Source: Bilabrum cf. latius
Taxonomy: Eukaryota
Direction: 5' to 3'
NCBI GenBank assembly: GCA_965178125.1
Contig: OZ237748.1
Coordinates: 744,001 to 808,000 of the forward strand
Length of the DNA stretch: 64,000 nucleotides
Shown: one piece after another, positions 13,212 through 63,592 of the stretch
Layout: every line of letters starts with the position of its first letter
Position numbering within the stretch: the first letter of the stretch is position 1
Notes under the pieces: model-generated
Told to the model about the DNA's origin: nothing
The model's database searches: none
What the model saw: the letters and a program-made list of their open reading frames with translations, nothing else
Made by a program: the position numbers and the translations under genes

Positions 13212-15569
13212 ATGCTCTGTTTCTCCTGCGGCTCAGGGAATTACCATTTTGCTCCCTATTTCTTCTGCAGAATAGCAGGAATGCATCACGATGATAGATT
13301 CGCTGAAATTGAAGGCGCTACTTGGCCTGCTGTCGGGAAAACTCGAACTCGTTTAGGCAAGATCGTGTGCTGGCGGAGGGCAGCGGCGGCCAAGAGGGAC
13401 GCCGCGATGGTGTTCCAGGCAGCTGCAGAAGGCAGGCCCATGGAGCTTGCAAAGCGATTGAGACTGGGCAAGCTGGCGGGCGCGACGGAAACCAAGGGTG
13501 CGGTGAGCCTACCAGAAGGGCGCAGCTCCATGTGCTCACCATTGGAGGCAGCCCGATTGGGAGGGCATGACGAGTGCGTGAATCTGATGGAGGAGGCCGT
13601 GGCATACGTGCAGCTGGCCCAGAGCACGGGCCGACACCGGGCTGCTCTTCGGGACAGTGAGCTGGATGCATTGTCGGGTGGTGACTGGTTCCGGCATCTG
13701 CGCGGGCGAATGCAATTTGCTGCGGATAGAAGCGGCCGACTCGATATTAGTACGGTGCTGCCGCCCGAGGAGCTGGAGACTGGGCTGAATGGAAGTCAGG
13801 CCCGTGTGATCCAATTCGGGCCTGCCAAGAGGCGCCCCGGCCGCGCGTCTGTCTTGCCTCCCGGCCAGCTGCCTGACTCTGCCTCGATGGCCGCGATCGA
13901 GGCCGGGCGCATCCCTCCGCTGAACCTGCCAGCGGGCAAGCAATGGGAGGGGCAGGGAATCAACAGCTTTGTATTCGCGGTGGAGATGGCGCGGCGCGGG
14001 GTGCGGGGTGCTGGCGGGGCAGGAGCAGAGGGAGGCGCTGGGTCTGGGGATCGATCGCCTATGCGGCTTGCCCTGAAAGGGCTGCTTCCATTCACCGAAG
14101 GGTACTCGCGCTTCAACTTCCAAAGGATATTATTACAGAGGTAGGCGTGGTCTGTCCCGCAGGTGGTGGGCGGGCACAGGAACATCGTGCCACTGCGGCA
14201 TGAGTTCTTTGGGTCCTCCATGCTTGTGCTGCCGTGGCTGGATCCCTCCTTGATGGAATCAGGCTGGGTTGCGAGGAATACAACCTGGCTTGCCATGCCG
14301 CTGTACCCTACAACCCTTAAATCATCATCCAAAGCTATCGCTTGCTCGGGCCCCAGGGAGGCGGCGCTGTGGCTGCTGCAGGCACTCGAGGCGATCCAGC
14401 ACATGCAGACGAGGGGGGTGGTGCACCGTGACATCAAGTCAGACAACTTCTTAATGGCTGGAGATGGGCGACTGGTGCTGACCGAGTTCGAGTCGAGCTG
14501 TTTGCTATTTTACGGGGGCATGACAGAACCGCTAGATCGGCAGTTCCATAGAAGGCACTTGCAGCGGGAGCATGAGCTTGCGGCCGCCAGAGACGGTACG
14601 ACATACGATGGCGAAGATGAAGGCGAAGATGATGACGAAGGATACGAGGACGATGACGAGAAAGAAAATCCCCAGGAGGCATTCGAGCATGCACAAAAGG
14701 GATCGAATCAGTCACCCTTTATGATTCAGGCTATTCAAGGGGGCGGCTCGCTCTTCAGCCGAGCCCCGGAGCTGTCGGCAATGCTTTATCAGAACTTATC
14801 CAAGGACTCGAGAGGCAAGCCGCTCGAGACACTGGCCCAAGCCTACGAGATGTCCGATGCGTGGGCCGCGGCCAAGACCGTGTGGGGGCTGCTGGCGCAA
14901 GGGGATGCAGCTGCGTCTGCCCTCCCCGGCAACGACAGGCTGTACAAGGACTCTGCCATCCCGAGGCTGCCCTACGCTGGCAGGGAGCTGGAGGCGATCC
15001 TGAGGGGGCTGCTGCAGTCGCTGCCCAGCAAGCGGCTGCGGCCCGAGAGAGCCATTGCCGCCCTGCGAGCCCTGCTGTACGGGCCCGGGAGCTGGGAGCA
15101 GGTGCAGCGGGCGGCTGGGGAGGGTGAGGCTGCGAGCGGTGGGATGATGGGCGGGTCCAGTGGTGGAGGCGCTGGGGCTGCTTCGGGGGCGGGGGCGGGG
15201 AATGCTGCGTCAGCGACAGCTGCAGGTGCTGGTGGATCTGGTCTGGTGGAGCTGGTCCGGGGGCAGCTGTGGGAGTGCGCAGCTGTAGACACGGGGCGCA
15301 GGGGGGTGGAGGGCGTGCCTGCCGCCGGTCTATCTTGGGGCCTGGCGGGGCCTGCTCCCATGGTGCGGCTGCCGATCGGGGAGGAGGCGTATGGGGCGTT
15401 CGGGTGGGGTGAGCGGCGGTGTGTCCCAGGAGAGGCGAGCCTGTGGGACCGGTTTCTGCGGCGGGAGGTGCTGCTGCGGGGGGACGGGCCGGATCAGTCT
15501 GCGGCTTGCATGGCCAAGGACTGCGGGGAGCTGGTGGAGGCGTTGAGGAGGTTTGGGCAAGGGGAGTGA
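13212..15569 (+). CDS. Family module fused to a PINK1-like (pseudo)kinase; 5' end uncertain
   Basis: ORFs 13212 and 14163 are joined by TAG 14142. WRRA..AKRDA...GGHDECV module at the N-terminus. HRDIKSDN is present but the DFG region reads TEFE. Confidence 0.78.
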
Positions 15570-15965
15570 GACGGAATGATGATTTATATGCGGCAGTTTG
15601 CTCGCAGCGTGAGGCTGCTGGAGGATGTGAATTCGTGCACCCGGCAGGAGAGTTACAGCGGTTGCATATTCGGGACAAGGCCGAGGAGCTGGCACAGTAA
15701 GGGTAAACGGTCTTGGTATACAGTGCTTCAATTTGCACCTTGGACTGTAGCTTTTGTGTGACACATTTGACTCGGACCCTGCCACCGCCCGGAGAGCCAA
15801 GCACACTAAATTGTTGCAAGAACTGTTAAATTTAGCAATCAAAAGAATCCTAGGTTTCAAAGCAATCGCTTAGTGTTGTATTTGCATCCTAGATCTATTG
15901 TGCCTCTGCACCCCCAAAGTTGTAAAACACCCCCACTCACTATGCAGTGAGATCACACAAAGAAA

Positions 15966-16390: not shown

Positions 16391-16509
16391 AAGCAAGGGG
16401 GTCGCCGCCTGTGCTACTACCATCTTGTAGGCAGAGGCCCGCACAGAGGTCAAGAAAAACTTGAGTACCTACTCAGTGCATCGGCCCAGGGTCTGCCCCT
16501 CTCTCCCTT

Positions 16510-16908
16510 AGCTGCGAAGGAGTACATCCCCAACCTGCTGGGCCCGCTGGTCGAAGCCGATAAACATTGTAGCCGTTCATTTGGACTATTACTGCGGCGG
16601 CGAAGCCGAAAGTAGCACGTCCGATCCGGTTTGTTTCCCTTAGCATGTTCAAGGACTTACAGGTGGTTCGGTTCAGGCACGCCCACGATTCCCGCAGAGA
16701 TGCTTCGGTGATATTCAAGGCTGCTGCTGAGGGGCGGCCGCTTGAGCTGGCCAAGCGCACCCGGCTGGGCAAGATGGCAGGTGGGCTGCAGAGGAGAGGG
16801 GTAGTCTTGGACGAGGACGGGAGGCGGCGCACCGTCACCGCGCTGGAGGCAGCAAGGCTTGGTGGGCACGCCGAGTGCGTCAGGGTGCTCGAGGAGGCAT
16901 TGTCGTGA
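16510..16908 (+). pseudogene. Truncated duplicate of the last exon of the 17250-19992 gene
   Basis: Near-identical to ~19595-19992 including the 3' flank; frame break around 16600-16645. Confidence 0.65.
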
Positions 16909-17249
16909 ATTGGTGCAGCGAGTGAGTGCACCGGGGCGGTGCCCGAGGAAACACCAAGCCAATCATGAGTGCATGCGACGAGTATTCAGCATCGTCCAAA
17001 CTGCTAGTCGGCGGAAAATGTCGAGTAGCCGGTGATTCTTCAAGCGAACCAATAGTGAACCACGACGAACCCTTAGTGACCGAGGATCGCAAAATTGGCA
17101 AGAACACCCGTAGTTGTACTTCCAGTAGTCAATTGTTATAAATTTATTCTCAGATATTCAATAGTGAAGCTGTGAATCGTTGCTTAAGCACCTCACGTCT
17201 CTAGAAGCACACATAGGATACAGAAGTACGGCCCGGCTGAGCTTTTTCC

Positions 17250-19992
17250 ATGAAGAAGGCTATAAGGGATGTATTTGCCCTGGCCAGATCTGGAGAAAGT
17301 GAAAAACTTAGCGAATTACTAGCATTCCACCCCATTGGAACTCGCAAACAAGTAGTAAAGTCAAGGCAGAAGCTGCCATTGCATTGGCTACGTGGATCCG
17401 AATCTGCGGTAAGATGCCGGCAGCGCACCCCATGGTCCTAGTATTAATTGGCAAAGATATTCTTTACTAAACTTTATAACGGCGGTGCAGTCCATGTCAA
17501 CTCCGCTTCACGCTGCGGCTGCGGGCGGGTTTTCGGCGGCCTGCTAGCTGCTGCTTGAGAACGGCGCGAATCCATCCGCCAAGAACAGAGTGAGGCTGCC
17601 ATTCAGGCATTCGCGGGAGGCAAATCGTTTAGCAAAGTGGTTTGTAAGGTATCTTTGTATTCTAAACTGTGCGGTGTAGGTGACGCTTTCACGACGGCAG
17701 TACATGCGCGAGGTTCACCTGTAGTCATACTCCGCAGAGATACGACATGCCGCTGCACTACGCCGCTCGTGCAGGGAATGAGGCAGTAAAGGTCATTGAA
17801 ATGCTCCTAATGGCAGATGCAGACCACATCAATGACCCCAACATCGTAAGACTGTTGGTTCAATGAGCGGTGCCAGCCATGCAGTGCGCTGCACACTATG
17901 TCCCATCTCGCAACAACACTACGGTTGTCACAGAATCAGCTTTCATGCATTGTAGGAAGGTATTCCTCCTATCTGCATGGCGGCCTCGGTGAACTCCGAT
18001 GCCTGCATCGCGCTGCTCAGGCACGGTGCCTCGCCGAATCCCCCTACTCTTCTCGGCACGGTGAGAGCCAATTGGTCGTTGCTATACCGGGTTGCCTGCA
18101 TGGTTGCATAGTCTAGCAAGCGTTGTCATCTTGTGAGCAAGCTGTGCAAATAACGATTGGTGTCGGTGCTCGCTTTGCAGCATGTACCGCCCCTGGTAGC
18201 GGCAGCGCGTAGGAGGGACATTAGGCTAATGCAGGCGCTGCTCGACCACGGAGCCGACCCCAATGCTGTCGTACAGGTGAGCAATGGATGCAGAAAGTGC
18301 GGCCCAATGCTGCACAGTAGTCGCTATAGGTTATCCCTTGTGATTGAACAAAGATCATTCGAATCCTGTCAACTGCATCTTGTATTTGCAGTTGTCCCAT
18401 GCATTCCTGCCTGGCAAGACTGCCCGGAAAGCGATCCGAGAGGCATCTGCACACGTGCTTGCCAGACTGGGATGTGTTCGGGGACTTGAAATATTAGTTG
18501 AGGCGAAGGCTAACTTGGACATACAATCGATGGTGAGTGCGCGCGGCCCACGAGTACGGCGCCGCGACCTCGTGAACTGGACACCCGTAACCACGCGTCG
18601 TATTAAACTTGCGTGCATCTTCCAGTAGATGAAACGTAGCGCCGGCTTCTTCATATTGATTCTTGCTCTATTGTGCAGGCGCGAAAAACTCCATTGCACC
18701 TAGCTGCTGCGGAGGGTCACAGCCAGTGCGTCAAGCTGCTAGCTCAAAGCGGTGCCAATTTGGAGCTGAGAGACTGTGTGAGATTTTGATATGAATCTGG
18801 TGGATCTGTGTTCTGATTCTAGCCAGGCCTCTTTTCTTATCCTGGCCTTGGACGCACATATTTGTGCCCGATACGTCTGAATCATACTTGCCCTGGTGCA
18901 CACCAGCCTTGGTCGAGGGCGACTCGATTAAGCATCGATGCTTAACGATGCTTTCGGCCATTAGATCGATGTGTTTTGTCAGCGTGATGCGCTATTCGAA
19001 TGGTATTTTCGGTGGTGGCTCTTGCTCGTCCATTTTCTGTCGCAGTTCGGCCACACACCTCTTGGAATAGCTGCAGTGAAGAAGAGGGCACAAATGTGTG
19101 CGGGCCTGTTGAGTGCTGGTTCCAGCATCGATGCTTGTCGCCACCGCTACCGGGTGAGCACGGGTATGCCGGGCCCATACGGATCTGGGGAAATGACCTA
19201 GGTCCGGATCGCAAGCTGGTCGCAGCGCGAGAGATCTCACAGCGGACGCCATCAATCTGGGATACGTGCACACCAATTTCGTTGTACGATTGTTACGGTA
19301 TGCTCACTTCCCTATTTTGCAGTAGTACACCCGAGTTCTAGTCGGAGGATAGCTTCTGCGCCGGGACAACCTTGCAGTCGCTGCTGTTCTCCGCAACGTG
19401 CAAGACAACTTTGACCCGGACTCAGAGGTGAGATGTTTGTGAAATATATTGACCTGCTCCACAGAAAGCGCCAAGAGTCGCGGATTGTCTACATTTCCTA
19501 GTGTTTGCTCACGTCACACCATTCCGTCACATAGATTCCCTGTCTCCATCTGCCTCTCTTTCTTGGGCACAGGACAACTAGGCAATGCTGCTTGCTGCAA
19601 AAGAGAACATACCCGACCTGCTGGACCCGCTGGTTGAAGCCGCAGGCCGCCGCATCCCAACCATCTTGGCGTTCGCATCGTGTGCGGAACCAGCGGTGGC
19701 AGGCGAGATACACCAGTTGCTTCCCCACATATTCCGAAGCGTGCAGGTGGTTCGGTTCAGGCACGCCCACGATTCCCGCAGAGATGCTTCGATGATATTC
19801 AAGGCTGCTGCTGAGGGGCGGCCGCTTGAGCTGGGCAAGCGCGTCCGGCTGGGCAAGATGGCAGGTGGGCTGCAGAGGAGAGGGGTAGTCTTGGATGAGG
19901 ACGGGAAGCGGCGCACCGTCACCGCGCTGGAGGCAGCCAGGCTTGGTGGGCACCCCGAGTGCGTCAGGGTGCTCGAGGAGGCATTGTCGTGA
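17250..19992 (+). CDS. Multi-exon ankyrin-repeat protein with conserved C-terminal module
   Basis: GT-AG-bounded ankyrin exons, e.g. 17491-17589 (STPLHAAAAGG...LLENGANP, with an in-frame TAG). Last exon RFRHA..RRDA...GGHPECV-TGA. Confidence 0.8.
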
Positions 19993-20175
19993 ATTGGTGC
20001 AGCGAGTGAGTGCACCGGGGCGGTGCCCGAGGAGGGCTTGCGTGTAGATTTGCGACAGGCATGCAAGTGGAGCAATAACAAGCAAAAAAAAAAATGTTTT
20101 AATCGTTAAGCGTGGCGGTTACAGGTAGTTGTTTGCTGCATGTACAGGAAGATGGATAGACTTCTGAGAGTATGC

Positions 20176-21737
20176 TTACCTGGCTGCATCCTCAAGCAAT
20201 CTCACGCAGTCATCGTGGCCACCCAACACTGCGGCATCAATGGGGCTCCGCATTACACCATTGCGCATACGGGAGCGCATGGTGAGGCAGCCTGCTCTCT
20301 TGCCCAGCCTGAGCCTCCTGGCCAGCTCCAGTGGCCTGCCCTCAGCGGCTGCCAAAAACACAAGTGCCGCATCACGACGCGCTTCGTATGCCATCCGAAA
20401 ACGAAGGATTGGGAGTCTCATGACTCGGCACCTCTTCCATTGCTCTAGAAATTCGACACACTTGTCAATGTCTTCAAATGCTCCGCCAAACTCGATCCCT
20501 GACGGCGACTTTGCAACATCCAGCGGAGTGCGCCCGGTCTGCGTTGTCCGGATAGCAGCAGTTAAGCAAAATATGAAAGGCGACGCTGGCAGTATCGATC
20601 ACTGGAACCGCAAGTTTGCAGTGCAACTTTCAACCGTCTGACATCATAACCTGTATCTAGCTGTGCTCCTGCCCTGCTCAGCACTCTCAAGCAGTCGTAC
20701 CTAGCGTAGTCCGCGGCGCAGTGGGCAAGGGTGTAACCTGACTGCGACACAGTTTAGTGGAACATCAAACTAGAGGCGCTACCGTGTGTTTGGACTTAAG
20801 GCATGCGGTATTTTCATGATGACTGAGTCTGCCATTACAACCATCACATACAGCATGTCTCCCGCAGGGATCGACGCCCCAATCTAGGAGGAACTATAAT
20901 GCCTTGTCGTAGCCCTGGGTAGCCGCCAGCATCGCTGCAGTGGTACCTCTCTGCGGATCCAGCGCAGGAAAACACCAAAACCACACGAATTGACAAAATT
21001 GCTGCGCAAAGTGCAAGGATACTAACTTAGCTATGATTTAAGTAGGTACAGTACCTACGTCAAGCAGCCTCACGTTGCTCGTCCGATTCAAATCCACCCC
21101 ATGGTCTGCCAAAGACTTGAGGCAAGCTACACTACCTGTTCGAGCTGCGAGGTGTACCGCAAGCAAGCCTTCCTGCGTGTATGGAACACAAGTCTACACA
21201 GGTTATCGACAGCATGTAGCAGTAGTTCTAGACGATTCAGCCAGTGTTTGTCCCTCATTTGCGCAATTAAGCTTTTAAAACCCAGCAAACGCATGCAAAC
21301 ATCGATTTATTTTCGTGGCAAACTACGGTATGCTCCATCCTGGAGAGCTCACCCTGTCAGTTGCTTCTGCATCAGCGCCCTCGCGAAGAAGCACGTTCAA
21401 GCATAGCGACCTGCCGTGGATTGCCGCGAGCAGCAGAGGTGTACGTCCTTCCTGTACTTTTAAAATATATAAAAAGTGTGTGTAGCTGGGTAGACGGAGC
21501 ATCCATAGCAAAATAATACTAGTTTACACGCCGAAGCAAGATGCGGCAAGCCATTCGTGTGGTGCAGTCAAAGTTGGACAGACTCAGTAGTCAAGTCCTC
21601 CTTGTAAACTTCATCAAAAACTTTGGAAGATCCTTTTTACTTACCAAGTCGTGTTCTTCCATATCAAGGCCATCCCGAATTCCCTAAATAAGACTTTTAG
21701 TCTTGCCCCTCCTAACATACTTGCATAGCTCCCTCAT
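20176..21737 (-). CDS. Multi-exon ankyrin-repeat protein with conserved C-terminal module
   Basis: Exons MRELCKYVRRGK.., EGRTPLLLAAIHG.., GTTAAMLAATQG.., GYTLAHCAA..; module ends in TAA. Confidence 0.78.
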
Positions 21738-22731: not shown

Positions 22732-25559
22732 TCATTTCTCCATGGCCTCCAGAAGCAGCTTTACACACTCGTCATGCCCTCCGAGCCTAGCTGCTTCGAG
22801 TGGACCCACCAGTCTAGTTCCGCCAACTCTGTCCTCAAAATTGCGTTTTATATCGAGCCCACCCGCCAGTTTTCCCAAGTTGAGTCGCTTTGAAAGTTCC
22901 ATGGGCCGGCCTTCGCTGGCTGCCTTGAACAACATGCCAGCGTCCCGTTTGGCCTCAGCTGCCCTCTTCCAACACATGACTCTTAGGCCTTTGGTTGAGA
23001 TGAAGGACCGGATGGTACCAGCTACTTCTGTTTTGCCTGCAGACTCTGCCATATCGGCGGGTGTTTGAAGGTTCTACGTGGGCAGGGGGGTACACAAAAT
23101 AAACTTAGAACGCATGATAGATGGGTCCAGATGCAAAATAAATGTGGATATTAATGTTGTTTTGTTTGCTCTCACTCTGTTCTTTATGCTTCTGCTGGCA
23201 CCAGCTTCCATAAGGATTGCGGCGCATGCAATATGGCCGAAGTGTGCAGCAATATGAAGGCCAGAGTTTCCATCCTGCGTCGAATCAAAGACCGTGAGAC
23301 TAGAAGTAGGACATGATGCGCATTGACCACAGCGATCGGCAAAGTATTGTCACGATTAATCCAGAGCTTGCATTCAAACTTCGTCGCAGTGTGTATTTGT
23401 AAAGGTTGATCTCATGCTCTTCGAACGGCCTAGACCTTCGTGACGAACGCCTATGTAGGTCTAGATCTTACTGCACTGGCTACCGCATTCACATCACCGC
23501 CGTTGTCAATAATCGTCTTCAAGCACTTTGCGCGACCCTTTCCGGCTGCATAGTGCGCTGGTGTGCGCCCAAACTGCAATGTAGTAAGTATAGGGTTAAT
23601 ATGGGCTGTGCTGGCCTGGGGTATGCTCCAGGGCGTGCTATACAGATCAACATCGAGCCGTAATGTAGGGACATCGAGCCACGGCTCTCATCCGACTGCG
23701 CTTCAATGCATAGGGCGCCAATCGGCAACCAATTTGCATGCACAAGGTTCACTGCACACCTCATCCCAGCACACACGGGTACAAATGTGTTCGTTTCCCT
23801 CACCTTGTCCAGCCCATTCACGTTCCCGCCATTGCTAAGTATCAGCTATAGGCGCTCCGGGTGGCCCATCTGGGTCGATTCATGCGCAGGTGTGCGGCCC
23901 TACTGCAGTGGAAGTGCAAGAGTAGTCAACTGCACGATGCGGATGTCTGCAAAGTTGCTTGTGTGTGACTGAAGTGAGTGGTCATGGATTCATCCCTGCG
24001 TCAGTAAGCATACTGGTGCACAGTTCTCGTCTGGCCAACTAGCCAACCTCGCTTTGCATATCGTCCCTCGGAGTGGTTGTTCAAGCCGGATAGACATCGT
24101 GTTAGTCATATTTCTCTCACCAGCTTTTCCATCTCATTCACGTCGCCACCGTGATCGATAAGCAGGGCTAAACACTCGGCGTGTCCACTGACGGCGGCAA
24201 GAAAAGTCGGTGAATAGCCATACTGCAATGAAGATCAAATGGCGATTGGAGGCAGTAGTGCTGCTTTGGGGTGCAGCTATGTATTTGTTGGTTTTGCAAG
24301 CGCTGCTGTAGCGAATGTGGCATGCATGTGGCTAAATCTAGAGAGGTTCACGCCGCAAAGCCTTGCAACCTATGAGACGACCAAACCGTTCCAAAAGCTA
24401 CATATGCTTGAGTCCGAAAGCCAGTGTTCCGGCTTGGGACGAGTGCTCTTCGGCCATACACAGCCCATCCGATACTTGAAAACTCAGACGCACTATGATA
24501 TTTCCCTTACATCGTCCGGCGTATGCACGTCTCCGTCGTGCTTGATGATTTCCTTCAGACACTCGACATGGCCATGCTTAGCTGCACACGACGCAGGTGT
24601 GCTTCCGTTCTGTGAACTAGATAAGAAAGGTAGACACAACATAAGATGCTTGGGGTTTGCTATTGAGCATATACTTCAGTCAGTAACAGAAGGGCTTAGC
24701 CATGCCTACCCTCATCCAAATCAGAACAGTTGATGCCAATTTGTTGTAAGTGGTCCTTTCCTGCCGGCAGTGCCAAAGGACGTAACGAGCCACTGGTACC
24801 CAAAACAACTGTTGACATTCGCACTCATCGCTGACTTGCTCGCAAGCCCACTTCCGTCGTGCTGTTGCAAGACAGGGCATGGCAGCACCCACCTCGAATG
24901 GGCTGACTCCCGGTGCAGCCCATGATTGCAGTCCATCCAGGAATGTGCTCTAAATGCTAACATATTTGACGCTTTCTCACGGTACTAGCGATGCTTAGGT
25001 TGGCGCCCCTCTGAATTAGCAGCTTCAGGCAGTCAGTTTGGCCTCGACTTGCTGCAAAAAACGAAGCTGTCTACTTGAACTGCGAAGAATAAGCCAGACT
25101 CCGTGAAATGAATTACACGCTGCTTGGAAATCCGGACGTTCATGCCAAGATGTGACCGCAGTCGCACGAGCGTGTGGGCGAGCAGTGTCAGCTGTCCGAT
25201 CGCGAACGGTAAGATGATACTGGCGTGATCAGCATCTTGAGTCACTCCAGCGCCTCCGGATAAGCCATAGCAAAATGCTACTGGCTGAGGCTGCTTCTGT
25301 ACTTGATTTGTCAGTAGCATCAGTCGCATCGTGATTCACCACCGATCACCATGCCATAGGTTTATGATCGACTGCTGATCGACGGCTCTATTGAGCGACA
25401 TTTCTAATACTTCGATCGTGCTACCAATAAAGAAAACTTTTCAATAATAAGCGATCTCACCTCATCTGTGGAATCGACGTTCGTTCCTGCATCCAGGCAG
25501 GCCCTTAGGTCATCCACCTTGCCATTCTTGGCAGCACATAGAAGCGGATTTTCTTGCAT
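22732..25559 (-). CDS. Multi-exon ankyrin-repeat protein with conserved C-terminal module
   Basis: Exons NPLLCAAKNGKVDDL.., GSTPASCAAKHGHVECL.., DGNSGLHIAAHFGH..; module 22732-~22990. Confidence 0.78.
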
Positions 25560-41798: not shown

Positions 41799-41810
41799 GA
41801 GACCACAACA

Positions 41811-46209: not shown

Positions 46210-46706
46210 AACTCGCGAGGACTAATGATATTCAGTATTGATGCCGGAGATGGATGTCTAGTTTCTGCTCCGGGTTGAGGTCCTCTGTGTTGGGCCATTG
46301 TAGCTTTGAGGAGGCTGGAACGGACTACCTGGTCGGCGGGAGTACATTGATGACAATCATGTCGATACTTATCCTCTGCTAAGTTAATCGAATTATTTTC
46401 GGCATGCAGAGACGACTATCTCCAGTTAAATCTATAGTTTCGGAAGATGAAGATTAAATTAACTAGACTAGAGTCTAGCCCGGGCTAGGCAGACTTCTGT
46501 ACGGTGCCTGGCCTGGTTTATAGAGACATGTTGACAGGCAGTTACAAGCAAAGTACTTCTATAAGGCACTGGTTACAACTGAGCTGGCATCAAACTTCTG
46601 GAGTTCCGTGTAGAACGTTCTATCTTCGCGAACCTTCGCTTCGAATTCCCCACCCAGATCTGTCCCCACCCCTTCCATTTATACTCCCACTATTAGGTTC
46701 TAAGTT

Positions 46707-48784
46707 ATGGATTCAACCATTCGATTAGGGCTCGCAGTATCTATTGATACGCGAAACTTACTACCAGACACAATTGATGATCTTAAAGGCGTCCATTGGA
46801 GGATGGTACGGCATCGTTCTAACGCAGTGGCGGTCGTCGACCTAACACAGTTTGTACAAAATTGTGGTGGGGCGAATATACCGCTGAATGGAGTAAGTAG
46901 ATTTCGCAATTATTCACTGCTTCGCAATGACTTTTTCCGGCAAGAAGGACTGAGGCGCTAGCGATGCGTCGGGTTTGTCCGGTTGGACAATATCTACTTG
47001 GTTGGTTTACTTGCATGCATCACGCAGGCCGGCCACAGCCTACCTATGATTGCCATTATTTGCAAGGATGTAGGAGTCTTGCTAGACATGATCGAACGTG
47101 GAATCAAGGTGGATGAAGCCGCTCGTGATTGTGTAAGCACATGTTACCCCGACCAAACTCTTTCATGGTGCCGCGTTGCTGTGTCTCTGCTCAGCTTATG
47201 CAACGCATTCATTTTATTTTATTTGTTCTTGTAGTTGATGAACAATGTTCTCCACCACGCGGCCTTGTCAGGAGATGAAGCCATCCTGGGGACGGTGTTG
47301 CGACTATGCAACGACATTGCGCCACTGAACGCGGTGAGTAGTACACGCAGAGTGCTGCCTATGTGTAGATGCAGTACGACCAAATGCAGATAATATTAAG
47401 CTGCGCGGCCATCATTTCGGAGCATGAATGCCATCGATCACCATCGGCCACCATCCAGAGCTAGACTAAAGAGTGCCCGTGTGCAACTGCCTCGCAGAAC
47501 GCGAAAACGCCAAGGGACCTGTGGCCCAGTTCTCAGCAAAGTTTCGATAGGGTCCTTGCCGAGACTGCCTCTTACCCTACACCAGCCATGTGCAAAGTAC
47601 CAGTCGCTCGGTAGTCGCACATCACACTCATGATGAAAATGACGAGAACGATGGAGGCGATGGACGTTAACCGGATCCGAATCATCAAAGAGCTTTTCTT
47701 GGTGCAGGACTTACTCGGCGCCATTCGCAACCGGTCTCATTCCATGACGCCCAGCGATGAAATCGTCCTGTACAGCATGTGCCGGTGCACTCTGCACGTC
47801 GTCTTCCGTCTGCTTGTCAATTGCATGGCCTCGCGAACGACTTGGGAAGCATGCGACAACCTACACTACGCTTGTCTTCTGTTAAAATGTGTGCTGCCGC
47901 GCCATGATGACCGCATGAAGCACCTTTGCAGAGTTCCGGAGCTGTGCTGCACAGCACGTCAGCCAGACCAGAACATCGGGTGGTATACTTGCACTGCCAT
48001 TCGCATACCAGATCACGAACCGGCCAATAAGTACCACCTGGGTCTTTTAACAGATTGCTTGAAGCTCAACATCCATGCAGCCACAGCGGAGGCCATATAG
48101 TCGGTGCATGCGCGGCATAGAAGTGATCCGTTTGTGCCGTCCGTAGTGTGTCAGGACGGTTGCAGTGCCATGGAACGTCTCGTGTTTGAGCCAGTCGCAC
48201 TGTTTCGAAATGCCGATCTTTTGCGTGCAGCTCGCCCCATGTTGTCTGCATTGGGAAGCCTATGTATGCAAACGAGAACAGCATCAGCGGAGCAGGTGAG
48301 CACGATTCTTACGCGCATGGTGCTGTTCGAGGCAGCCCAGATGTTTGTCCCGCGTATCGAGAGATCTGCTCTTCCTGGGCAACTTGACCAGACGAACTCA
48401 GAAGCAGCAATGGACGGACCCGAAGTGCCGTACTGTGCGACTCTTGATGAGCCACTGAGGCAGCCCACGCGAGAGTCGTTCATCAGCCAGTTAGACAGTC
48501 GCTTGGAAGAGATTAAGAAGAATGACAGAAGGACTATTGTGCGATGGCGAAGAGCCGCAGATGCTGAGCGTGACGCTAGGCTGGTGTTCAATGCTGCCAA
48601 AGATGGGAGACCCATGGAGCTAGAAAGACGGCTGAGGCTTGGCAAGCTGGCCGGTGGGCACGAGCGCCTTGGAATGATGGACCAGAATGGCAATCAAGAG
48701 GCATCATGGGCATGTCCCTTGGCGGCTGCTGTGCTTGGTGGGCACACAGAATGTATCCAGCTTCTGCAGCAAGTATTAGGCTAA
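46707..48784 (+). CDS. Ankyrin + central unknown domain + C-terminal module protein
   Basis: Exons at 46707, ~47028 and ~47235. ORFs 47630 and 48104 are joined by TAG; ends TAA. Confidence 0.72.
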
Positions 48785-48931
48785 ATTTTATTCGAACTCC
48801 AAAAAATACATGGTGAATCTTCACACAAGGTTCGGTCTGGATTGGCGAACGTTCTTCAGGTATTTCTGGTGAAGACTCACCGTGAAGAACGTCAAGTCCG
48901 GCCAGACTGCACAAAACTTGCAACGTTGGCA

Positions 48932-50944
48932 ATGGAAGACAGTAAAAGTGGCGCTATCAAGCTTTTTGTGTCTGACAAGACCGCGATTTGCATCAGTGAT
49001 TGCAGGGATGGATTGCAGGAAGGCTTGGCAACGCTCGCACAAAATTAGACACCAGAGACAAACGTGACTAGAGAATTGATCGACCTCATTGGTTCCATTA
49101 ATTCCAAAATAGATAGAGTGAGCTATATTCTAGTGCGAGCATGCCAATATCATCCAACATGAATCACTATATGAGCCGATCTTGTCATTTCCATTTCTAG
49201 GCACGCATCCTAGCTCATTCCCACAGAAGGAGCGAACAATCATAATGATAGCACTAGCTAGCAAAGATATAGAGCTTAGCAAACAACTGTTTGCGTTGGG
49301 TGCGAGCAGCAGCAAGAAGCACAAGGACATCGTGAGGCGTGGATTGGCGGCTTGAGGCCGTTGCATATCATCATGTTCTTACATTACCTCACCACCGCAT
49401 TGATCAGATGTATGTATATTCCTGCGAAACAAACTAGTTATGTTGCGCAGATGGGCAGCACCGCGCTGCACTACGCGGCAGCTTCCGGCGACCCGTCCCT
49501 TCTAGCGATGACAATGCGGCACTGCGACGATCCGGCCCCAACAAACGACGTGAGTGCTAATGCACGCGTGCAATTGGTGGCACGTAGTACGAACCATGCT
49601 TTCCTAAGATGGAGCTGCAGGCACGATCGGTTATTTTGTTTTGTTTGGGTCGCCACACACGGCCTACTAGTAGAGCATCCTCGCCTCACCTCCTCCTATT
49701 CTTCCGCAGTACGGCAGCACACCAGAGCACCTTTGGCCAGGGGAGGCAAGCAAATTCCACGCAGTCGCTGCTGCTACTTCGCCCAGGCCATTTCCGCACT
49801 CTACAGTCTCCAATCGCTCCAAGTTCACGGGCTACCTCGCGGTCGAGCTGGAGCGGTTGATGGGAGTGCTGAACGACAAGCCGAGGCCAGCGAAAGTGCT
49901 TGCACTTGTGGACGATTCGAGGATCTGCGAGGCATTTAGCCATGTGCTGAACAGAGAAGGGGACATATCGCCCGAGAAAGAGACTACGCTGTACTCTTAC
50001 TGCCGGTGCGGTCTTGGTCTCGTGGTGCCTCTGATGCAAGGCGCCCTGGAGCTGAAGGATGACACGGACCGACTGGAGTGCTTGGAAGTGGCGACTTAGC
50101 TGATCGACAAAATAACCAACACAAGCCCGGACGTTGGAAATCGGTTGCTGTACCAGAAGAACTTCGGCCGGTTCGGAACTGCACCAGATACGGGGCTATA
50201 CGTCGGTGAACACACGCAATTCCCTCCCTCCGGTGCTGGCAAGTACACTGTGGGGCTGATCACGGATTGCGTGCAGCTAGGGCTCTACGACATGCTAAAA
50301 TAGGTTCTCGAGTACACCAGGGCTACTAACCAAGCAGCCGTTTGCGTGCACTCCTCAGCCCGGTCGGCCTTTTGCTTTGGCCTCGTCCATATACTGCTGC
50401 TGGCCCCTCACAGGATCTTCCACAAAGAGTGGTTCGCTGATAGGGCGACAGGGATGATTAGCAGTGCCATCATGCGATTCATGGACACGCGTGTGTCCCC
50501 TGTCGATGATGAGGCGTTGATCACAGAAGTCGATCGGATTGTGCGATGGGAGCAGAGCTTCGTGTCGAGGGATATCCTTCCCGACGGCTGGTGCCACTCA
50601 TTCGCTCAGCCCAAGAGGGCAGACGGACCTGAGGAGGTCGACCGGCAGTATAAGGAATGGAAGGGAGATTTCCGTATCCGTGACAGAACTAAGCTGGCGA
50701 ACTGGAGGAGGGCAGTGGAGGCCAAGAGGGACGCTACGATGGTGTTCTAGGCAGCGAGTGAGGGCAGGCCACTGGAGCTGGCCAAACGACTCAAATTGGG
50801 AAAACGTGCGGGCGGGCTAGAGATGAAAGGACACCTTGCGCCTGCGGGTGCAGGCGAAGCGCCTCGGAGTGTGGTACCGATCATGCTGCCAGGTTGGGTG
50901 GTCACGACGAATGCGTTGAGCTGCTGGCCTAGGCCATGGGCTGA
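48932..50944 (+). CDS. Ankyrin + central unknown domain + C-terminal module protein (1-nt frameshift ~50882)
   Basis: Ankyrin exon 49451-49549; FPPSGAGKYTVGLITDC; the module's AARLGGHDECV lies in a shifted frame. Confidence 0.72.
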
Positions 50945-51356
50945 AGTCATGCCTGGAAATCTGGGAATTGTTGTAGAGTTTATAGATTGTAGCAAATGAA
51001 GTAAAAGATCCGATCCGGGATGCGGACCTACCCAGGCCACATCCTAGGCCACATCGGATGTGCTATTTAATTTTGGCAGGCACGCACCGAACCGAAACAC
51101 GATTTCTACATTTGTTGTAATCCGGATCAAGCACAATCAGCTCCGAACACTTGGCAGGGCGCCCCAGGATCATGCGCCGCTATTGAGCACTAGTCCGGCA
51201 TTCCAAACTTCATGTAACTAGCTGCAGCGGCCAACTGGGCAACGCGATCGCCACCACATTGAGGAGGCCACGAAGGGTGAAGCTGTGCAAGCTGACGGGC
51301 CGGCGGCATGTTCCGACATGATTGAACTGCTCTCCTGCGGCCAATTCAATCGTCCT

Positions 51357-53426
51357 TCACATTGCTGACTTGCCTGCAGTGTGCAGAACTTCCACGCACT
51401 TGTCATGCCCGCCAACTCGGGCAGCTTCGATTGGCAACACTAGTCTACAGGCTGCGCCATCAGCCCCTGCCTCGCTGACCCTGCCCTTTATCTCCAGTCC
51501 ACCAGCCAACTTGCCAAGCTTCAGCCTCTTTGCGAGCTCCATTGGTCGGCCGTCCCGAGCCGCCTTGAAGACCATGGCAGCGTCCCGCTTGGCCTCCACT
51601 GCCCTCCGCCAGCTCACGAGCTTTCGACGATCTCTCACCTTGAACTCTTTCTTCCACTCCAAATAGGACGCATCCGGGTCTAGATCGGGGTCCGTGACTT
51701 TATTGAATAGAAAGCTATCTAACATATGAAGCACTCCATTCTAACGCAGCAGTGCCTCAAACTCAACCAAACGGTCCACTATACGTATTGCCAACGTGTC
51801 ATTGCGGTCTGATCGGCGAGTCTCCAATAGTCTCACTGCGATTACTTCAAGCATGATACCAGATCCGGATGCGGTACAGTGCCAGCGTGGTTGAAAAACC
51901 CGGAATGGCACAACTACTAGACGCTACAAAAGCTTAGAGCGGCGGTATGTACTATGCAGCACACCGTTTCTATGCGTTTTTGCGACATTTGTGTCCATAT
52001 CCAGCAGCAGCTTGGCAAGCGAGTCAAAGGCTCCAAGTTGCATGCAATCTGTGACCAGCCCGACGAGGTATCTGCCAGCTCCAGATGGTGGGAATCGCGT
52101 GAGGGCACACGTATACATCCATGCACCATTCGCGTCGCCATACATGCCGAATCGAGGGTGATTCAGGAGCTTGTTGCTTTCTCCAGGCTCTACGTTGATG
52201 ACGACGTCAAGTATCGACATCACCGCAAGCAGGCAATCTTCTCGAGACCTATACGTATCTGCCTTCACCGCCCTTTGCAGCAGTGCTGCCACGATACGAA
52301 TGCACGTCCGGCACATGGAGTATAGCGTCGTCTCCAACTCCGGGGAGATGCTATCTTGCCGGACAAGCACTTGAGTGAGAGATTCAACAAGCCCAGAGCG
52401 TCGTACACGGGCAATTGTCTTATCAATTCCGTGATTTCCGTCAATGTACTCAATCAACCTGTTCAACTCTACGTGTAGGTATCCAACGTGGTTAGAGAGG
52501 TCCGGTGCCGTACTGAGGGGTAGAGGGCACGGCGCGGCGATAGCGGCAACCTCATCAAATTCGCCGACGCCACCCGACCATAGCTATCTGGGTTTGCTAC
52601 CATACTGCAAGTGTGTATTCAAGATATACATATATATATATATATATATGGTTATATAACCCTAAGATATATACCAGTAGTAGCGAGGGGTGGCTTAGCA
52701 GGTACTGTCACGATACACTTCGCGATGCATCACAAGTCTGACTGCCCATATCAGCAGTATCGGCCCTTTGACAATGACCAATCGCTAATAAACTTATTTC
52801 ACAGCGGACTTGGACAGTGCTTGCCCTCACCTCGTTCGTTGGAGTGGGGTCGCCGCACTCGCGAAAAATGAGGGCGAGCAGCTCGGCGTTACCAGACGCT
52901 GCAGCGTAATGCAGGGATGTGCTACCCATCTGTAGCCGTGAAAAACTATTGAAATGTTGAGCGTGATGCGTGTTCAATCCTAGAATGGTTGGGACGGTAC
53001 TGGCAGCCGAAGAGCGGCATCGCGGCCGGGTTTCAATACGTGCTCACCAAGTCACGGTACTCTTTTCCTGAACTTGCACTAAGTTTAATAAGATTGCGGC
53101 ATAAATCTATATCGTTGGACTGAAGGGCAAGCATCAGAAGTGTGCGCCCTTTCTGCGAAAATGTGCAGGTGTCCCCAACAGCGTGAAATATATCGCTATA
53201 GCCACTCCATATCGAATCTAGGCGACTAAATATTACTCACAGTATCAATACGAACGTTCGGATCATTAAAATAGGCAACAACATCATCTACTTGTGCTGC
53301 TAGAGGTATGTAGCCTTTGCATACGTGGCCCACGAGCCCCTCCCGTACGTGGGGAAGACATTCACTGATTTGTAGCTTAGTCTTTCTTGATATTTGTACG
53401 AATTTATGTTTTTCTTGTACTGCCAT
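51357..53426 (-). CDS. Ankyrin + central unknown domain + C-terminal module protein
   Basis: First exon is homologous to that of the 48932 gene; GSTSLHYAAASG; FPPSGAGRYLVGLVTDC; module ends TGA. Confidence 0.76.
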
Positions 53427-53937: not shown

Positions 53938-56035
53938 TCATGGCTTCCGCCAGCACTCTCGCCACGGCTATGCGCTCGAGGCCTTTGCACCTGCAGACTC
54001 TGCGAGAGTCTCCAGCAGCACCTCCACGCACTCGTCATGCGCTCCTAGCCGGGCGGCATCCAGGGGAAGCATCATTCGTTTGGTCCCGTCCTTCTCTGCT
54101 ACCGAACCCTTGATTTTCAATCCACCGGCCAGCTTGCCCAGCCTCAGCCTCTTTGCCAGCTCCATGGGCCGACCGTATGCAGCAGCGTTGAAGACCAGGG
54201 CAGCGTCCCTCTTGGCCTCTATCGCTCTTCGCCACACCAAAGCTCGACTGACCCGCAGCGGCAAGAACAACCGGATGGCTTTAGCAGTCTCGGTCTTCAA
54301 CTGCATTGCTGCCAAGTCTGCAGCGGTCCTCTAGTTCTGCACGGCGTGAAAGACACAATTTTAATATCGAACAGAAGTACGCACAAAGTAGCTGCCGGAT
54401 ACGATGAAAATTGAGATAGGTCTATGGCATATGGTTTCTAGTATATATTGTGCGGACGACAGCAACTAACCGTATTCTTAATGTCTTTGCAAGCTCCTTT
54501 ATTCAAGAGGATAGTAGCGCAGGCTAGGTTTCCCATATACGCTGCATAGTGCAAAGGAGTCTGTCCATTCTGCGTACAATATGGTACAATGTGTAGAAAA
54601 TAATATGCTCCTGAGATACGCCAGAGAATGCGTCATATGACGCCAAATCGTAGACGATTAGACTGAATTCCCCGCGTATCAAACTATTGCTCTTCTTCCA
54701 AGCAATGATCCGGGATATGAATCGTACCACACAGCTACAAAAACACCAAGCTCAGCTGCACAAAATATCAGACCTCTTCAGTATGGGATTCTCACGCTTT
54801 CCAGAGCATTTGGATTTGCGCCAGCTTCAAGCAGCACCCTCAGGCTGTCTGCATGCCCTCGCTCCGCCAGGTCATGCACAAGCTGGGAGCCATCCTGCTA
54901 GAATGGAGTCACGTAAAGCACGTGTAGCGAGGTAAAGTTTGGTGAGGTCAAGGATTGTTCAGAGCAATTTTTCTCTGTGGCTTGAACGCCATCTCACCCT
55001 GTTCAGCTTGTCAATAATGCCTCCTGCCCGTATCAGCATTTGCAAACAGCTACTATGGCCATGCAGTCCAGCTACATCGACAGGAGTACTGCCGTCCTGT
55101 TTGATGGGGAGATGACGTAGATTGTTTGCATGATCGAACTGTGGAGACAGTTAAATGAATTGGTCCACTGTCGCACACTATCGCAATCTCACATCATCTG
55201 GGGCATTCACGTCAGCCCCGGCTTCTATCAGCAGCTTCAAGCAGTGACTATAGCCTTGTTGTGCGGATGCATGTACAGGCGTGTAACCGTTCTGAGGTTA
55301 GTCATGGCCATGCAATGTGTACGTGAGCATTGGTGTTTTGCAGTGCACGGAGCTGGCCTTGGGCGCAGTGGGTCGCGCACTAGACCAAGAAGACCCGAAC
55401 ACTACGGTCGCTGCCAACACATGAACTGCAATGGTCATCACAATATACCAAATCCCACATGGGATTGCGGATATTTGGCCTCTCACTCTCGAATTTGCTG
55501 CGTTCACGTTGGCCCCCCTCTCGATGAGCAGCTTTAGGCAGTCCGCCTTGCCATTCAATGCAGCACAGTATGCTGGAGTTCGACCCGACTGGTTAGAATT
55601 AGTTAAAAATAAAGGTAATCACATGCTAATATACAGTGATTGTCGGGCGAGAAAATAGCCCAAAACAAAGGCAAAGCTGCTAAAGCTGCAGCTTGGCGAG
55701 GAAGACGGGGATATAAGCAGTGCACGGTAACAGTACGAATCCCAAACAAAGTCTAATTTGGTTTCAAAACGAAGTGCGCTTGACTCTAAGCACAATAGAT
55801 TCCCCTTAGGATTGTGTGACTGCCACAATGCAGTCTTGGTTGATGGCAAAACCGGCGATACGAACACACATCTGCATCGGCTGCACGCCCAAATAACGAC
55901 TGAAACCATTTACGAGTGATTACCATAATTTTGGGGGCTCACACTGTCGCGGCTCTCGATATCCGTTCCCCAATTGAGGCAAACCATGAGCTCTTCTACG
56001 TTACCACTCTGTGCAGCCCTTCGCATGTCATCTCC
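53938..56035 (-). CDS. Multi-exon ankyrin-repeat protein with conserved C-terminal module (5' end uncertain)
   Basis: Exons MRRAAQSGNVEEL.., GRTPAYCAALNGKADCL.., GYTPVHASAQQG.., GSTPVDVAGLHGH..; module ~54000-54240. Confidence 0.76.
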
Positions 56036-60798: not shown

Positions 60799-63592
60799 GC
60801 AACAAGCCCTAAAAGCTGCACAAGACCGCATAAAGTGGCCGGGTGGACCTACCCTGGAAGAATCACGCGAGCTTCTATCTCTGTACCTCGCGGGAGGTGG
60901 AGACCCAGCCCGCCGCCACCCAGAATTGATTTATGTTAGCATTTGCGGCGTTTATAGCACCCGAGCAAATGGTCACCGTCCAGTAATGCATGATGTACCT
61001 TGTGGATTTGTGCTGCGTTGCAAGCTTTACCTACATTTCCACGGGCAGTACGGACGCGCGTGTATTCACTTTGCCGTGCTCGAGGGACAGTCATGCTTTG
61101 TGGAAGCATTATTAGAGCTAGAATGCGGGAGCGTACAAGCTGCCATACAGGACAGTAACGGTGTAAGTTTAGCGTATGACGGAGGTTGATTTGGTTTGCT
61201 CCGCTCAAATGTGCATGAAGACTCCAGCGCATTGCTCCCGCCATACTACACACAATTCTTGATATCCCTTGTAGTCAACTGCACTGCACCTGGCGGTGAG
61301 GCAATACCCAAAAGGTGGTGACCTTAGAAATACAGAATTGCTGCTGAGCGCCGGGGCAGATCCATCGGTTCTGGATCACGTGAGGCCAGTGTCATAAGGC
61401 GCCTTCGCACGGGACGCATAATTGTCTCGAAAACGCATGCAACCGTGTCAGCAGCAGCCCGCTATTCAATGTGCAGGGTGGCAGAAGCCCGATTTGGTTC
61501 GCGATTGCCAGCAAACGGACATACATTACTCGGCTGCTCTTAGAAGCATGCCCCGACCCGAACCCAATAGTGTCTGTGAGTAGCTCCCGGACACCTCTAC
61601 ATTCAGTTTGCTTAGACCAGTCGATTGAATTCAGTCTTTCCGGCTAGGATGCAGCATCTTGGTAGAACCATGCAATTGCTAATTTGCCGGACGGGGCTCC
61701 CCATTCGCAGCCGAGCAGTACGGCTCTGCAGCTTGCTGTGATGCATGACGCAGTTAGCGATACTGAGTACATCCTCGCCAACGGTGCTGACCCTGACGGC
61801 AAGTCAGCAGTAAGAGAATAGCCGTACACATATCAAATTATAGCACGATCGATGTTTTGGGAGCAAATGTGTGTCCGGCTCCTGCATCCGGCCCGTGCAC
61901 GCAGGACGGGCAGCCACTCCTGCACACTGCTGTACGCGCCTCCAGCCGGCCGTGCTAGCTGGCTCTTCTCCAAGCAGGCGCAGATCCTGGCCAACTGACT
62001 AAGGCGAGCACTTGTATATGATTGTTCTATTGGAGTTTCGAAACTTCTTCAGCCCTACTGCTGCTCGTATTCATGAAATGATGTGTCGAATTGCACTGTC
62101 GATGCGTATTGCTAGATTCTGCACACTGTGTTGCATGTCACGTATCTTGTTGGTACAAGTACACTGTATCGCAGTCCGGGTGGACGTGCTACGACTCTGC
62201 TCTTGTCATGAGCAAACCAACAATGGCATAGCTCATGTCAGGCTCTGGTGTATATGGTCTGCAGAAAGGCCCTTACGAAGTGAGGTCGTGTGCGTATATT
62301 TCGTTGTCACACAGTCGGCCTGTGCACCATACTTGAAGGATCACTAGCCAGAATAAGACGTCATTGCCTCGCCTCTTTGGATGCAGCTGCCGTCCTCCAT
62401 AGCAAGAATCAAAGCAGCAGCAATCGACTGTCCAGGATAGTGTTTTGACTCATTTGTTGCGTCTGCCAACGGTACGAAGCAAGACGGGGTAAGAACTGAC
62501 AACCATATTGCATCCATTCGTTCTTCTGTATGCCATGCAGACTAGTCTTGCAACGTTACATCAAGTATAACCATTGTCACTTTTCCTCACAGGAATTGCT
62601 TTCGCCAGTCTAGCGTGCTACCATGAGCAAGCACAGCCGCTGCGTCAAGGCGCTTCTGGAGTATGGCGTCCCAGGCGACGAGACGACCGATGTAAGGCAT
62701 GGCTCAACTACTAATCGTTGCCTGTCTGAACCACCGGGGTTGGTGGACATCAAGCACTGTACGTCCTTCAATTTTGGATAGTGGCCCTAACACCAGCTTC
62801 ATAAGTGTCGGGATTTCACCCGTGGCGCTTTCCCCCCGCAGTACGGTCAGAGTTTAGTGCATCTTGCGACTGGGAGTGTCGGTACGATCCAGGAGCTCAT
62901 CAAGGCTGGATGTTCAGTGCATGGGAATGACAGGGTATGGCATGGTCAATGTGCAAGACGAGTTATGCTAGATGTGCGCACACTAGATTTCTCGTATATG
63001 TTAGCTGCTTTTCCATTGTGGTGCAGGGCGGGAGCACACCTCTCCATGATGCAGCCGGCAAGGGCTGCATGGCATCATGTGCTCTACTAGTAGAGGCAGG
63101 ATGCGATCGATGCGCGACAGACAACGTGAGCACAATATGTGCAAGAGTTCCAGTGATTTCGGGACAGCAAGTCGTATGCATTGCATTGCTCGATACCGTG
63201 TGCCCATAGCAATGTGAACGGTTGTAGCCATTGCGAACATTCTGCATTTGCAGGACGGTCTACGGCCTGACCAGATAGCATCGAGGCGGGGATACCACTT
63301 TGTGGCACGTCGTATTTGGACCGTCCCCTCGCCGAGGTAGGTGGCCGTCATGCGGTGGAAAGTGGCGCAGCAGGCCAAGGTCGATTCCAAGCTCTTGTTC
63401 ATTTCGGCAGCATATGGAAGACCCATGGAGCTGCGCAAGAGGATGCACCACGGCAAGCTGGCCGGTGGGCTGACTGCTCGTCGGCCACTCTAGACAGGGG
63501 AAGGTGTGAGGATGGTAACTCCGTTGGAGGCAGCCAGACTTGGAGGGCATGACGAGTGTGTGAAACTGCTAGAGGATGCAATGGGGCGGTGA
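60799..63592 (+). CDS. Multi-exon ankyrin-repeat protein with conserved C-terminal module (5' end uncertain)
   Basis: Ankyrin exons such as 63027-63125 (GSTPLHDAAGKG). The last exon holds the module with two in-frame TAG and ends TGA 63590-63592. Confidence 0.75.

Follow-up and report, generated by a model that had tools for sequence, protein, structure and literature searches.

How does one short protein sequence come to recur, little changed, in 12 genes whose remaining parts differ so widely? The question is raised by a stretch of 64,000 nucleotides from Bilabrum cf. latius (assembly GCA_965178125.1, contig OZ237748.1, positions 744,001 to 808,000 of the forward strand), hereafter the window, which carries repeated copies of an unnamed protein module of ~85 residues attached to variable front ends. 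We assign a probability of about one half to the reading that this module is a constant docking or adaptor domain of a lineage-specific gene family. A small domain under selection, with a conserved charged helix, a fixed C-terminal position, and many different front ends across at least a hundred members, fits the pattern of such a docking or adaptor domain.

Module copies were located with a hidden Markov model (HMM) built from the nine copies that are intact under translation table 11 (alignment A1) and run over all six frames, with TAG translated as glutamine. The window contains exactly 12 copies (domain E values, 4e-24 to 2e-43; Table 1), and no further match starting in the N-terminal part of the module was found at E < 1 in the six frames of the 64 kb. 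A first-pass annotation of this DNA had named 12 positions near which copies should lie; the HMM, a motif search, and a listing of stop-to-stop frames all place the module there (12 of 12 sites). Of the 12, 11 span the whole module (profile positions 2-6 to 87-88). An ankyrin-only gene ends in the module in six cases; in five others the module stands behind an all-helical central domain, and in one it comes before a kinase-like domain, so that the window's gene frames agree with the arrangement first proposed for them. Three copies contain apparent in-frame stops (46072, 50748, and 63491), which are TAG in every case. If TAG is a sense codon, as argued below, these three seemingly broken copies are intact, and 11 of the 12 are intact overall. 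Genuine damage is confined to the copy near 50.7 kb, which has a frame shift near 50880 and is either a pseudogene or an assembly error. Its frame changes between ...SVVPI and AARLGGH, and the RNA-like contig on this gene ends at 50731, short of the shift.

Table 1. Features of the window, with positions counted from its first nucleotide.
Feature	Position	Strand	Remarks
Module copy 1	13341..13601	+	HMM E 1.7e-41; N-terminal end of the 793-codon TAG-sense frame 13188-15566 with kinase-like domain
Module copy 2	16645..16902	+	HMM; TGA stop next; within 290-bp tract 97% identical to copy 3
Module copy 3	19729..19986	+	HMM; TGA stop next; same-strand ankyrin repeats upstream (17500, 18679)
Module copy 4	20182..20430	-	HMM; TAA stop next; directly behind ankyrin repeat tail
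Module copy 5	22741..23001	-	HMM; TGA stop next; end of ankyrin-only gene
Tyrosine-recombinase fragment (Phage_integrase)	26298-26606	-	Pfam
Tandem array	27864-30483		329 bp x 8.0 copies, 97% match; between retroelement parts
Tandem array	31293-35780		128 bp x 35.1 copies, 87% match; between retroelement parts
Reverse-transcriptase frame	36846-39668	-	941 codons, 6 in-frame TAG
720-codon frame	39672-41831	-	In retroelement stretch
Last-exon frame	42625..43914	+	Helical central domain and copy 6; 7 in-frame TAG; TGA stop
Module copy 6	43651..43911	+	HMM; in last-exon frame 42625..43914
Last-exon frame	44860..46206	+	Central domain and copy 7; 4 in-frame TAG; run X5 contig over 44905-46016
Module copy 7	45889..46128	+	HMM; in last-exon frame 44860..46206; TAG inside module at 46072
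Gene C	46697..48784	+	Joints in X5, X7; ankyrin exons, then central domain and copy 8; TAA stop
Module copy 8	48515..48778	+	HMM; in gene C last exon
Gene D	48906..50996	+	Joints in X5, X6, X7; carries copy 9
Module copy 9	50679..50852	+	HMM; gene D; TAG at 50748; last repeat in other frame 50882-50935
Gene E	51360..53420	-	CT..AC joints in X5, X6, X7; central domain and copy 10
Module copy 10	51375..51641	-	HMM; in gene E last exon
Gene F (ankyrin-only)	53941..55400	-	Splice joints; last exon to 54569 with copy 11
Module copy 11	54004..54258	-	HMM; in gene F last exon
1019-codon frame	56581-59637	-	G+C-rich, low complexity, 2 in-frame TAG, no Pfam family
Module copy 12	63335..63583	+	HMM; in-frame TAG 63338 and 63491; TGA stop; ankyrin repeat upstream ~63030

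The genes of this family can be read correctly only with TAG as a sense codon. Codon usage and spliced reading frames indicate that TAG is indeed a sense codon in the host, while TAA and TGA terminate. Within the three spliced genes that contain internal in-frame stops, all nine are TAG (two of two in gene C, four of four in gene D, and three of three in gene E), and the spliced frames terminate at TAA or TGA a few codons behind the module. The RNA-like contigs that cover TAG sites show no other letters at these positions, which argues against editing. Eight module-terminal frames checked in the window end in TGA (five), TAA (two), or TAG (one), and a ninth, that of copy 1, continues into the kinase-like domain. 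Metagenome relatives follow the same usage. They comprise 118 loci from four data sets, of which 80 were retained for codon counts, yielding 78 modules. These modules contain 33 in-frame TAG, two TGA, and no TAA codons, and the first stop behind them is TGA in 46, TAA in 20, and TAG in 9, with none in the remaining 3. Furthermore, locus L002 carries a complete gene for the TFIIH protein Tfb4 with six TAG codons versus one CAG and one CAA, and the alignment of the encoded protein with Tfb4 chains of solved structure (E = 1.9e-11) extends to either side of the TAG codons.

The amino acid that TAG encodes is most likely glutamine. Column-wise log-odds over 27 TAG codons in module columns give glutamine +21.1 bits and the next best residue, serine, -12.7 bits, which puts glutamine 34 bits ahead. 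Among the closest paralogue pairs, glutamine lies opposite TAG at 6 of 19 positions. The database protein P0006, which is 83% identical to gene F, has glutamine at the window's TAG 53968 and ends at the same last residue. Because TAG and CAG are one transition apart, part of this glutamine signal is mutational. A tRNA search that covered the window and 60 of the 80 metagenome loci found no tRNA gene. Reading TAG as sense changes both the gene models and the number of broken copies given in the first-pass annotation. Standard gene calling chops the genes of the family into pieces of 80 to 250 residues, and this may be why the module family has escaped notice.

Gene models were obtained from spliced contigs. 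The window is eukaryotic, with an AT-rich stretch at its left end followed by DNA of 50 to 65% G+C in which open frames are short and broken under the standard reading. Contigs of sequencing runs X5, X6, and X7 align to the window with no differing letters and skip segments of 88 to 226 nucleotides (nt). The skipped segments are bounded by GT..AG in genes of the plus strand or by CT..AC in genes of the minus strand, that is, by canonical joints on the correct strand. Such joints were found for genes C, D, E, and F in the three runs, which come from two studies, and contigs of the DNA run X1 contain none of them. The three runs are labeled "RNA?" by an automatic guess (X5 also "probably DNA"), and their RNA nature rests on the spliced joints.

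Single ankyrin repeats occupy exons of 99 or 105 nt, lengths that preserve the reading phase, and the module shares the last exon with the part of the protein directly before it. Read through TAG, the last exons are frames of 430 to 501 codons. The exons of gene C lie at 46697-46892, 47028-47132, 47235-47332, and 47497-48784, and its RNA-like contig stops 39 nt past the stop codon. Those of gene D lie at 48906-49117, 49227-49331, 49451-49549, and from 49710 onward. Gene E has its last exon at 51360-52604 and ankyrin exons at 52831-52929 and 53048-53152, with one more from 53241 upward. Upstream exons of gene F occupy 54796-55095 and begin again at 55192; its frame passes a TAG at 53968-53970 and terminates at TGA. 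In the ankyrin-only gene of copy 5, Pfam Ank matches lie at 23077-23349 and 23454-23687, and more repeats extend to ~25050.

What kind of domain is the module? From its modeled fold, it is predicted to be two ankyrin repeats, the first helix of which is prolonged by a basic helix; the earlier description of a modified ankyrin pair thus finds support in the structural model, in fold comparison, and in profile searches. The AlphaFold2 (AF2) model, made from alignment A1, has a predicted local distance difference test (pLDDT) score of 82 and comprises a long helix (3-31), a short helix (34-42), a hairpin (54-66), and two further helices (68-74 and 78-88). All listed Foldseek matches and 50 of 50 VIA rows hold ankyrin repeats or fusions of designed ankyrin repeat proteins (DARPins). 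The best fold match has a Z score of 9.8 and a root-mean-square deviation (rmsd) of 2.0 over 77 residues, and 7roy has a Z score of 9.7 and an rmsd of 1.6 over 69. Neighbors of the module in the ESM Atlas are ankyrin-like only. In addition, a profile of 43 family sequences matches ankyrin and DARPin chains in the PDB with E values down to 3e-17, matches that cover only the C-terminal part of the profile (positions ~41 to 112 of 136).

A Pfam scan of nine module frames gave no family over the cut-off, whether a known housekeeping domain or any other. Six frames are without any family, two have sub-threshold Ank matches only, and one has a weak, unrelated match to CCER1. The best Ank match (PF00023; 16.5 bits versus a cut-off of 21.1) corresponds to the last 20 residues of the module. 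Across 86 aligned modules, the best-conserved stretch is the noncanonical N-terminal 40 residues, with the consensus LRFRRAHEAHRDARLVFRAAAEGRPLELQRRLVLGKLAGG. This stretch is better conserved than the canonical repeat, and some of its charged residues vary little or not at all. The modules have a median net charge of +3, which is located in their first 30 columns. The motifs EGRPLEL, EGRPMEL, and LGKLAGG are printed in no paper that we searched. Neither the domain family nor its motif nor its set of architectures is present in Pfam, in solved structures, or in the papers searched; the fold itself is known.

We find that the module is conserved at the protein level. Nei-Gojobori comparisons of 55 pairs among 11 copies give a median proportion of synonymous differences (pS) of 0.70, which is saturated, and a median proportion of nonsynonymous differences (pN) of 0.35, and only 1 of the 55 pairs has a low pS. 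Synonymous sites are therefore not as conserved as nonsynonymous ones; the first-pass annotation had named equal conservation of the two as the pattern that would tell against its proposal. As had been claimed, conservation of the module also far exceeds that of the remainder of each gene. In six pairs among four genes (the 48-kb gene left out), identity is 60 to 71% in the module versus 20 to 40% in the central domain. In the same pairs, pN is 0.21 to 0.28 in the module versus 0.42 to 0.60 in the central domain, with pS at 0.59 to 0.84 in both.

Exchange at the DNA level has left traces as well. A BLASTN comparison of the modules with 600-bp flanks finds copy-to-copy similarity inside the module only, at 67 to 87%, with two exceptions. 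Copies 2 and 3 share exactly 290 bp at 97% identity (16660-16949 versus 19744-20033) between unrelated flanks. The tract starts within the first residues of the module, at a junction between CAG and GTGGTT, and extends 42 nt beyond the stop. So sharp a tract between otherwise unrelated genes suggests that the module exon was copied as a cassette or underwent gene conversion. The second exception is a tract of 170 bp, 87% identical between copies 6 and 11 (at 43.7 and 54.0 kb). On this sequence evidence, DNA exchange is real but local, contributing to the conservation of the module without explaining it, and the family-wide pattern is one of purifying selection on the protein. The 42 nt by which the first tract passes the stop are close to the end of the RNA-like contig of the 48.8-kb gene (39 nt past its stop). 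In the DNA run X1, contig breaks fall precisely within module cores (43767-43779, 50731-50755, 51576-51600, and 53773-53801). Summed contig depth at the cores is 10 to 100 times that of the flanks, a ratio that is not a copy number; the pile-up hints at many near-identical module copies elsewhere in the genome.

The front ends of the module are diverse, and the view of a constant unit on diversified domains holds for the window and its relatives alike: ankyrin arrays, leucine-rich repeats (LRRs), a Ras-like GTPase, and helical domains all stand before it. Ankyrin arrays lie beside the module in P0016, P0051, P0030, L030, L070, L076, and L002, and upstream ankyrin exons are present in loci L001, L014, L064, L068, and L079. 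An LRR_6 match lies beside the module in L067, and L069 and L057 look similar by eye. A Ras/Roc-like GTPase accompanies it in P0113, and unrelated regions outside Pfam do so in P0001, L006, and five window genes. The central domain of the window, found in five genes, is all-helical, spans ~330 residues, and matches no Pfam family. No homologue of it was found among database proteins of 185 to 592 residues, and it is absent from 153 database proteins (150 listed of 310 matches, plus 3 others). For the whole last exon, AF2 gives a model of low quality (pLDDT, 58), and a fold search with it gave generic helical matches only, with Z scores up to 11.1, under the meaningful level for helical proteins.

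The kinase-like frame at 13188-15566 (+) matches Pkinase at residues 368-440 (E = 5.8e-8). It contains the motif HRDIKSDN and has TEF in place of DFG, and its protein may thus be a pseudokinase. A kinase-like paralogue at 9480-11159 (+) is 57% identical to it over 324 residues; of the two, only the 13188-15566 gene has the module. The paralogue has DFG and ends in a long poly-Glu run.

The module is nearly always C-terminal. Among full-length database matches, 34 of 68 have at most 10 residues after it and 9 of 68 have more than 50, and with TAG read as sense the median in the 78 metagenome copies is 3. A full-library profile search returned 310 cluster representatives at E ≤ 1e-3, 107 of them at E ≤ 1e-10; generic ankyrin proteins match profile positions ~58 to 88 only. 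Ten clusters were inspected, all of which come from Logan or ENA assemblies, and none is named. Relatives from other data sets, at 41 to 65% identity, retain the same invariant residues. Peptide patterns detected no relative of the module in IMG/VR viral contigs, a search that distant relatives could escape.

If the module is a docking or adaptor domain, it would be a self-contained protein-interaction domain of ~85 residues, with a first helix that is predicted to be long, basic, and amphipathic. The variable fronts (ankyrin arrays, LRRs, the helical domain, and the Ras/Roc-like GTPase and kinase-like domains) would supply binding or signaling. The module would then tie these fronts to one common partner, complex, or cell location, or to each other, and we infer that its conserved surface binds that partner. 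Purifying selection maintains the module's sequence, and the family would grow and re-sort through exon-level duplication and, now and then, through transfer of the module as a cassette of DNA. Occurrence on many architectures within one protist lineage, as in this unnamed and strongly selected family, is what usually marks a hub interaction domain, and the family gives a handle on an uncharacterized pathway. Several points weigh on the other side. In ankyrin-only genes the module just prolongs the repeat stack and could be a mere conserved C-terminal cap, and two ankyrin repeats make a small unit for a domain that stands on its own. The exposure of the conserved charged residues is deduced from helix periodicity. 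The models of non-ankyrin partners are single open frames on short metagenome contigs or table-11 calls shortened at TAG, and some DNA-level homogenization is present.

The first of these points can be taken further: the module might be a structural cap only, that is, a C-terminal capping pair of the ankyrin solenoid that serves folding or solubility and has no partner of its own. Its predicted fold is that of ordinary ankyrin repeats, it lies directly behind ankyrin repeats in 6 of the 12 window genes, and ankyrin exons are the commonest upstream content in relatives. We nevertheless consider a mere cap unlikely, given that the module is also found behind LRRs, behind a Ras-like GTPase, and behind non-ankyrin domains of 300 residues, and ahead of a kinase-like domain. 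Moreover, its conservation peaks in the noncanonical charged helix and not in the canonical repeat, and the ordinary terminal repeats of the same genes are far less conserved.

A second alternative, which we count as a sharper version of the docking or adaptor reading, holds that the module is an adaptor of degradation or immune type, linking variable ankyrin or LRR "sensors" to a ubiquitin ligase or, through self-binding, to effectors (GTPase, kinase) with a module of their own, in the manner of a SOCS box or a death fold. The set of partners (ankyrin, LRR, Ras/Roc GTPase, and kinase) resembles that of SOCS-box and ROCO/DAPK proteins. The strictly C-terminal position, the large clustered family with fast-diverging variable parts, and the virophage-like element in the same window would also suit such a role. 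However, the families that would define it are missing from the scans. No SOCS_box, F-box, or PRANC match was found in Pfam scans of 9 module frames, 36 database-relative frames, and 11 module-bearing and 27 upstream metagenome frames. No TIR or death family appeared in any Pfam scan of the window or relatives, and no NACHT or NB-ARC in the scanned window or relative frames, which cover most genes only in part. The module's predicted fold is ankyrin, neither a SOCS box nor the six-helix bundle of the death fold; matches to FEM1 and ASB9/ASB11 in the fold and PDB searches arise from the ankyrin repeats alone. Together with the negative search of viral contigs, this makes a degradation or immune role doubtful.

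A bolder proposal would make the module the shared signaling or adaptor domain of a very large, receptor-like network peculiar to this lineage. The network would be a new system of innate immunity or of degradation, in a protist lineage with UAG as a glutamine codon. On one side would stand "sensors" assembled from shuffled ankyrin and LRR exons, on the other GTPase or kinase "effectors," brought together by the common C-terminal domain, and endogenous virophage-like elements would have adopted the host code, with TAG in place of CAG. We regard this network as improbable. Least credible of all is a pure DNA-level effect, in which gene conversion or a mobile 3' cassette keeps the copies alike without protein selection: the 290-bp and 170-bp tracts and the pile-up of near-identical words at the breaks of DNA-run contigs would fit it, but the contrast between pS and pN largely excludes it, and the distant relatives keep the same invariant residues.

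The AT-rich stretch at the left end of the window (1 to ~8,900, ~30% G+C) is, by its genes, a virophage-like element, which upholds, in this form, the virophage neighbor first reported. Its capsid frame (137-2023, +), open only with TAG as sense, matches PDB chain 6G45_A (E = 1.5e-15, residues 68-540). The 6G45 entry is titled "Putative major capsid protein" and is presumably the mavirus capsid. The frame also matches Pfam MCP_V20_C (30.4 bits; cut-off, 27). A Prim-Pol frame (4132-6930, -; 932-942 amino acids) is likewise open only with TAG as sense and has an N-terminal Prim-Pol domain (E = 8.6e-14). Once TAG is read through, two frames of the element extend to 638 and 942 codons. The capsid and Prim-Pol genes contain 6 and 11 in-frame TAG, 0 and 1 CAG, and 25 and 24 CAA codons, respectively; with in-frame TAG and almost no CAG, the element is written in the host's code. 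The TAG-sense frames of the AT-rich stretch hold no TAA and no TGA, and the other frames hold 14 to 79 TAA and 12 to 58 TGA.

Capsid and Prim-Pol are the only genes recognized in 1-9300, where no packaging ATPase, penton, or cysteine protease was seen, and the left end of the window cuts through the element. Peptide patterns found no relative of either gene in IMG/VR, where distant relatives could escape them. The nearest module lies ~4 kb from the end of the AT-rich stretch, and nothing in the data ties the two together in function. That a virophage-like element is written in the variant code of its host is relevant to how viral codes track those of hosts. Literature searches that joined virophages with UAG reassignment returned nothing relevant, only known UAG-only cases, and the code change and the recoded element may well be more surprising than the module family itself.

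The remaining features of the window lie apart from these subjects (Table 1). Retroelement remains occupy 26298-41831 (-), and their combination of a recombinase with a reverse transcriptase suggests a DIRS-like element. The 1019-codon frame may not be a gene. An Rfam scan of the window gave no match.

How do these genes compare with known systems? A nuclear code with UAG as glutamine and UAA and UGA as stops is described for Iotanema spirale in PMC5304391, according to which few eukaryotes other than ciliates have a code with UAG as sense and UAA and UGA as stops; PMC11687900 gives a further known UAG-only case. As in Iotanema spirale, in-frame UAG fits glutamine best here, and UAA and UGA end genes. 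The genome in the window is of a different kind, with 50 to 65% G+C and numerous spliceosomal introns, and it carries retroelements as well as an endogenous virophage-like element. That element resembles endogenous virophages and mavirus-type elements in its capsid match, its adjoining Prim-Pol gene, and its ~30% G+C within a host of 50 to 65% G+C. It differs from mavirus-type elements in the 6 and 11 in-frame TAG codons of its capsid and Prim-Pol genes, and it is partial in the window.

The layout of the module proteins has parallels in SOCS-box (ASB) proteins and in the ankyrin/PRANC proteins of poxviruses, both of which carry a short constant C-terminal domain behind variable ankyrin arrays. 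The SOCS box also follows other binding domains and a small GTPase and forms a large gene family. The module family shares with them the constant short C-terminal domain, the variable fronts, and the many members. It differs in that the module is itself ankyrin-like and matches no SOCS_box, F-box, or PRANC family. Signaling proteins of the ROCO/DAPK type combine ankyrin, LRR, Ras/Roc-like GTPase, and kinase domains. The same set of domains is found beside the module, but on separate proteins that share the module alone, with no COR or death domain seen. Because the defining domains were looked for and not found, the likeness to SOCS-box and ROCO proteins is one of layout, not of membership.

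A further comparison is with ankyrin domains themselves. In the predicted model, residues 17-89 of the module superpose on two repeats of ankyrin domains such as DARPins and FEM1B/C with an rmsd of 1.6 to 2.0, and the last repeat shows the canonical PLxxAxxxGHxxCVxxL. In contrast, the first repeat is atypical, with a basic first helix of ~29 residues, and the motif RRAxEAxRDAxxVFxAAxEGRPxELxKRLxLGKLAGG is without a match in Pfam or the PDB. Whereas ankyrin repeats vary in number, the module behaves as one fixed unit.

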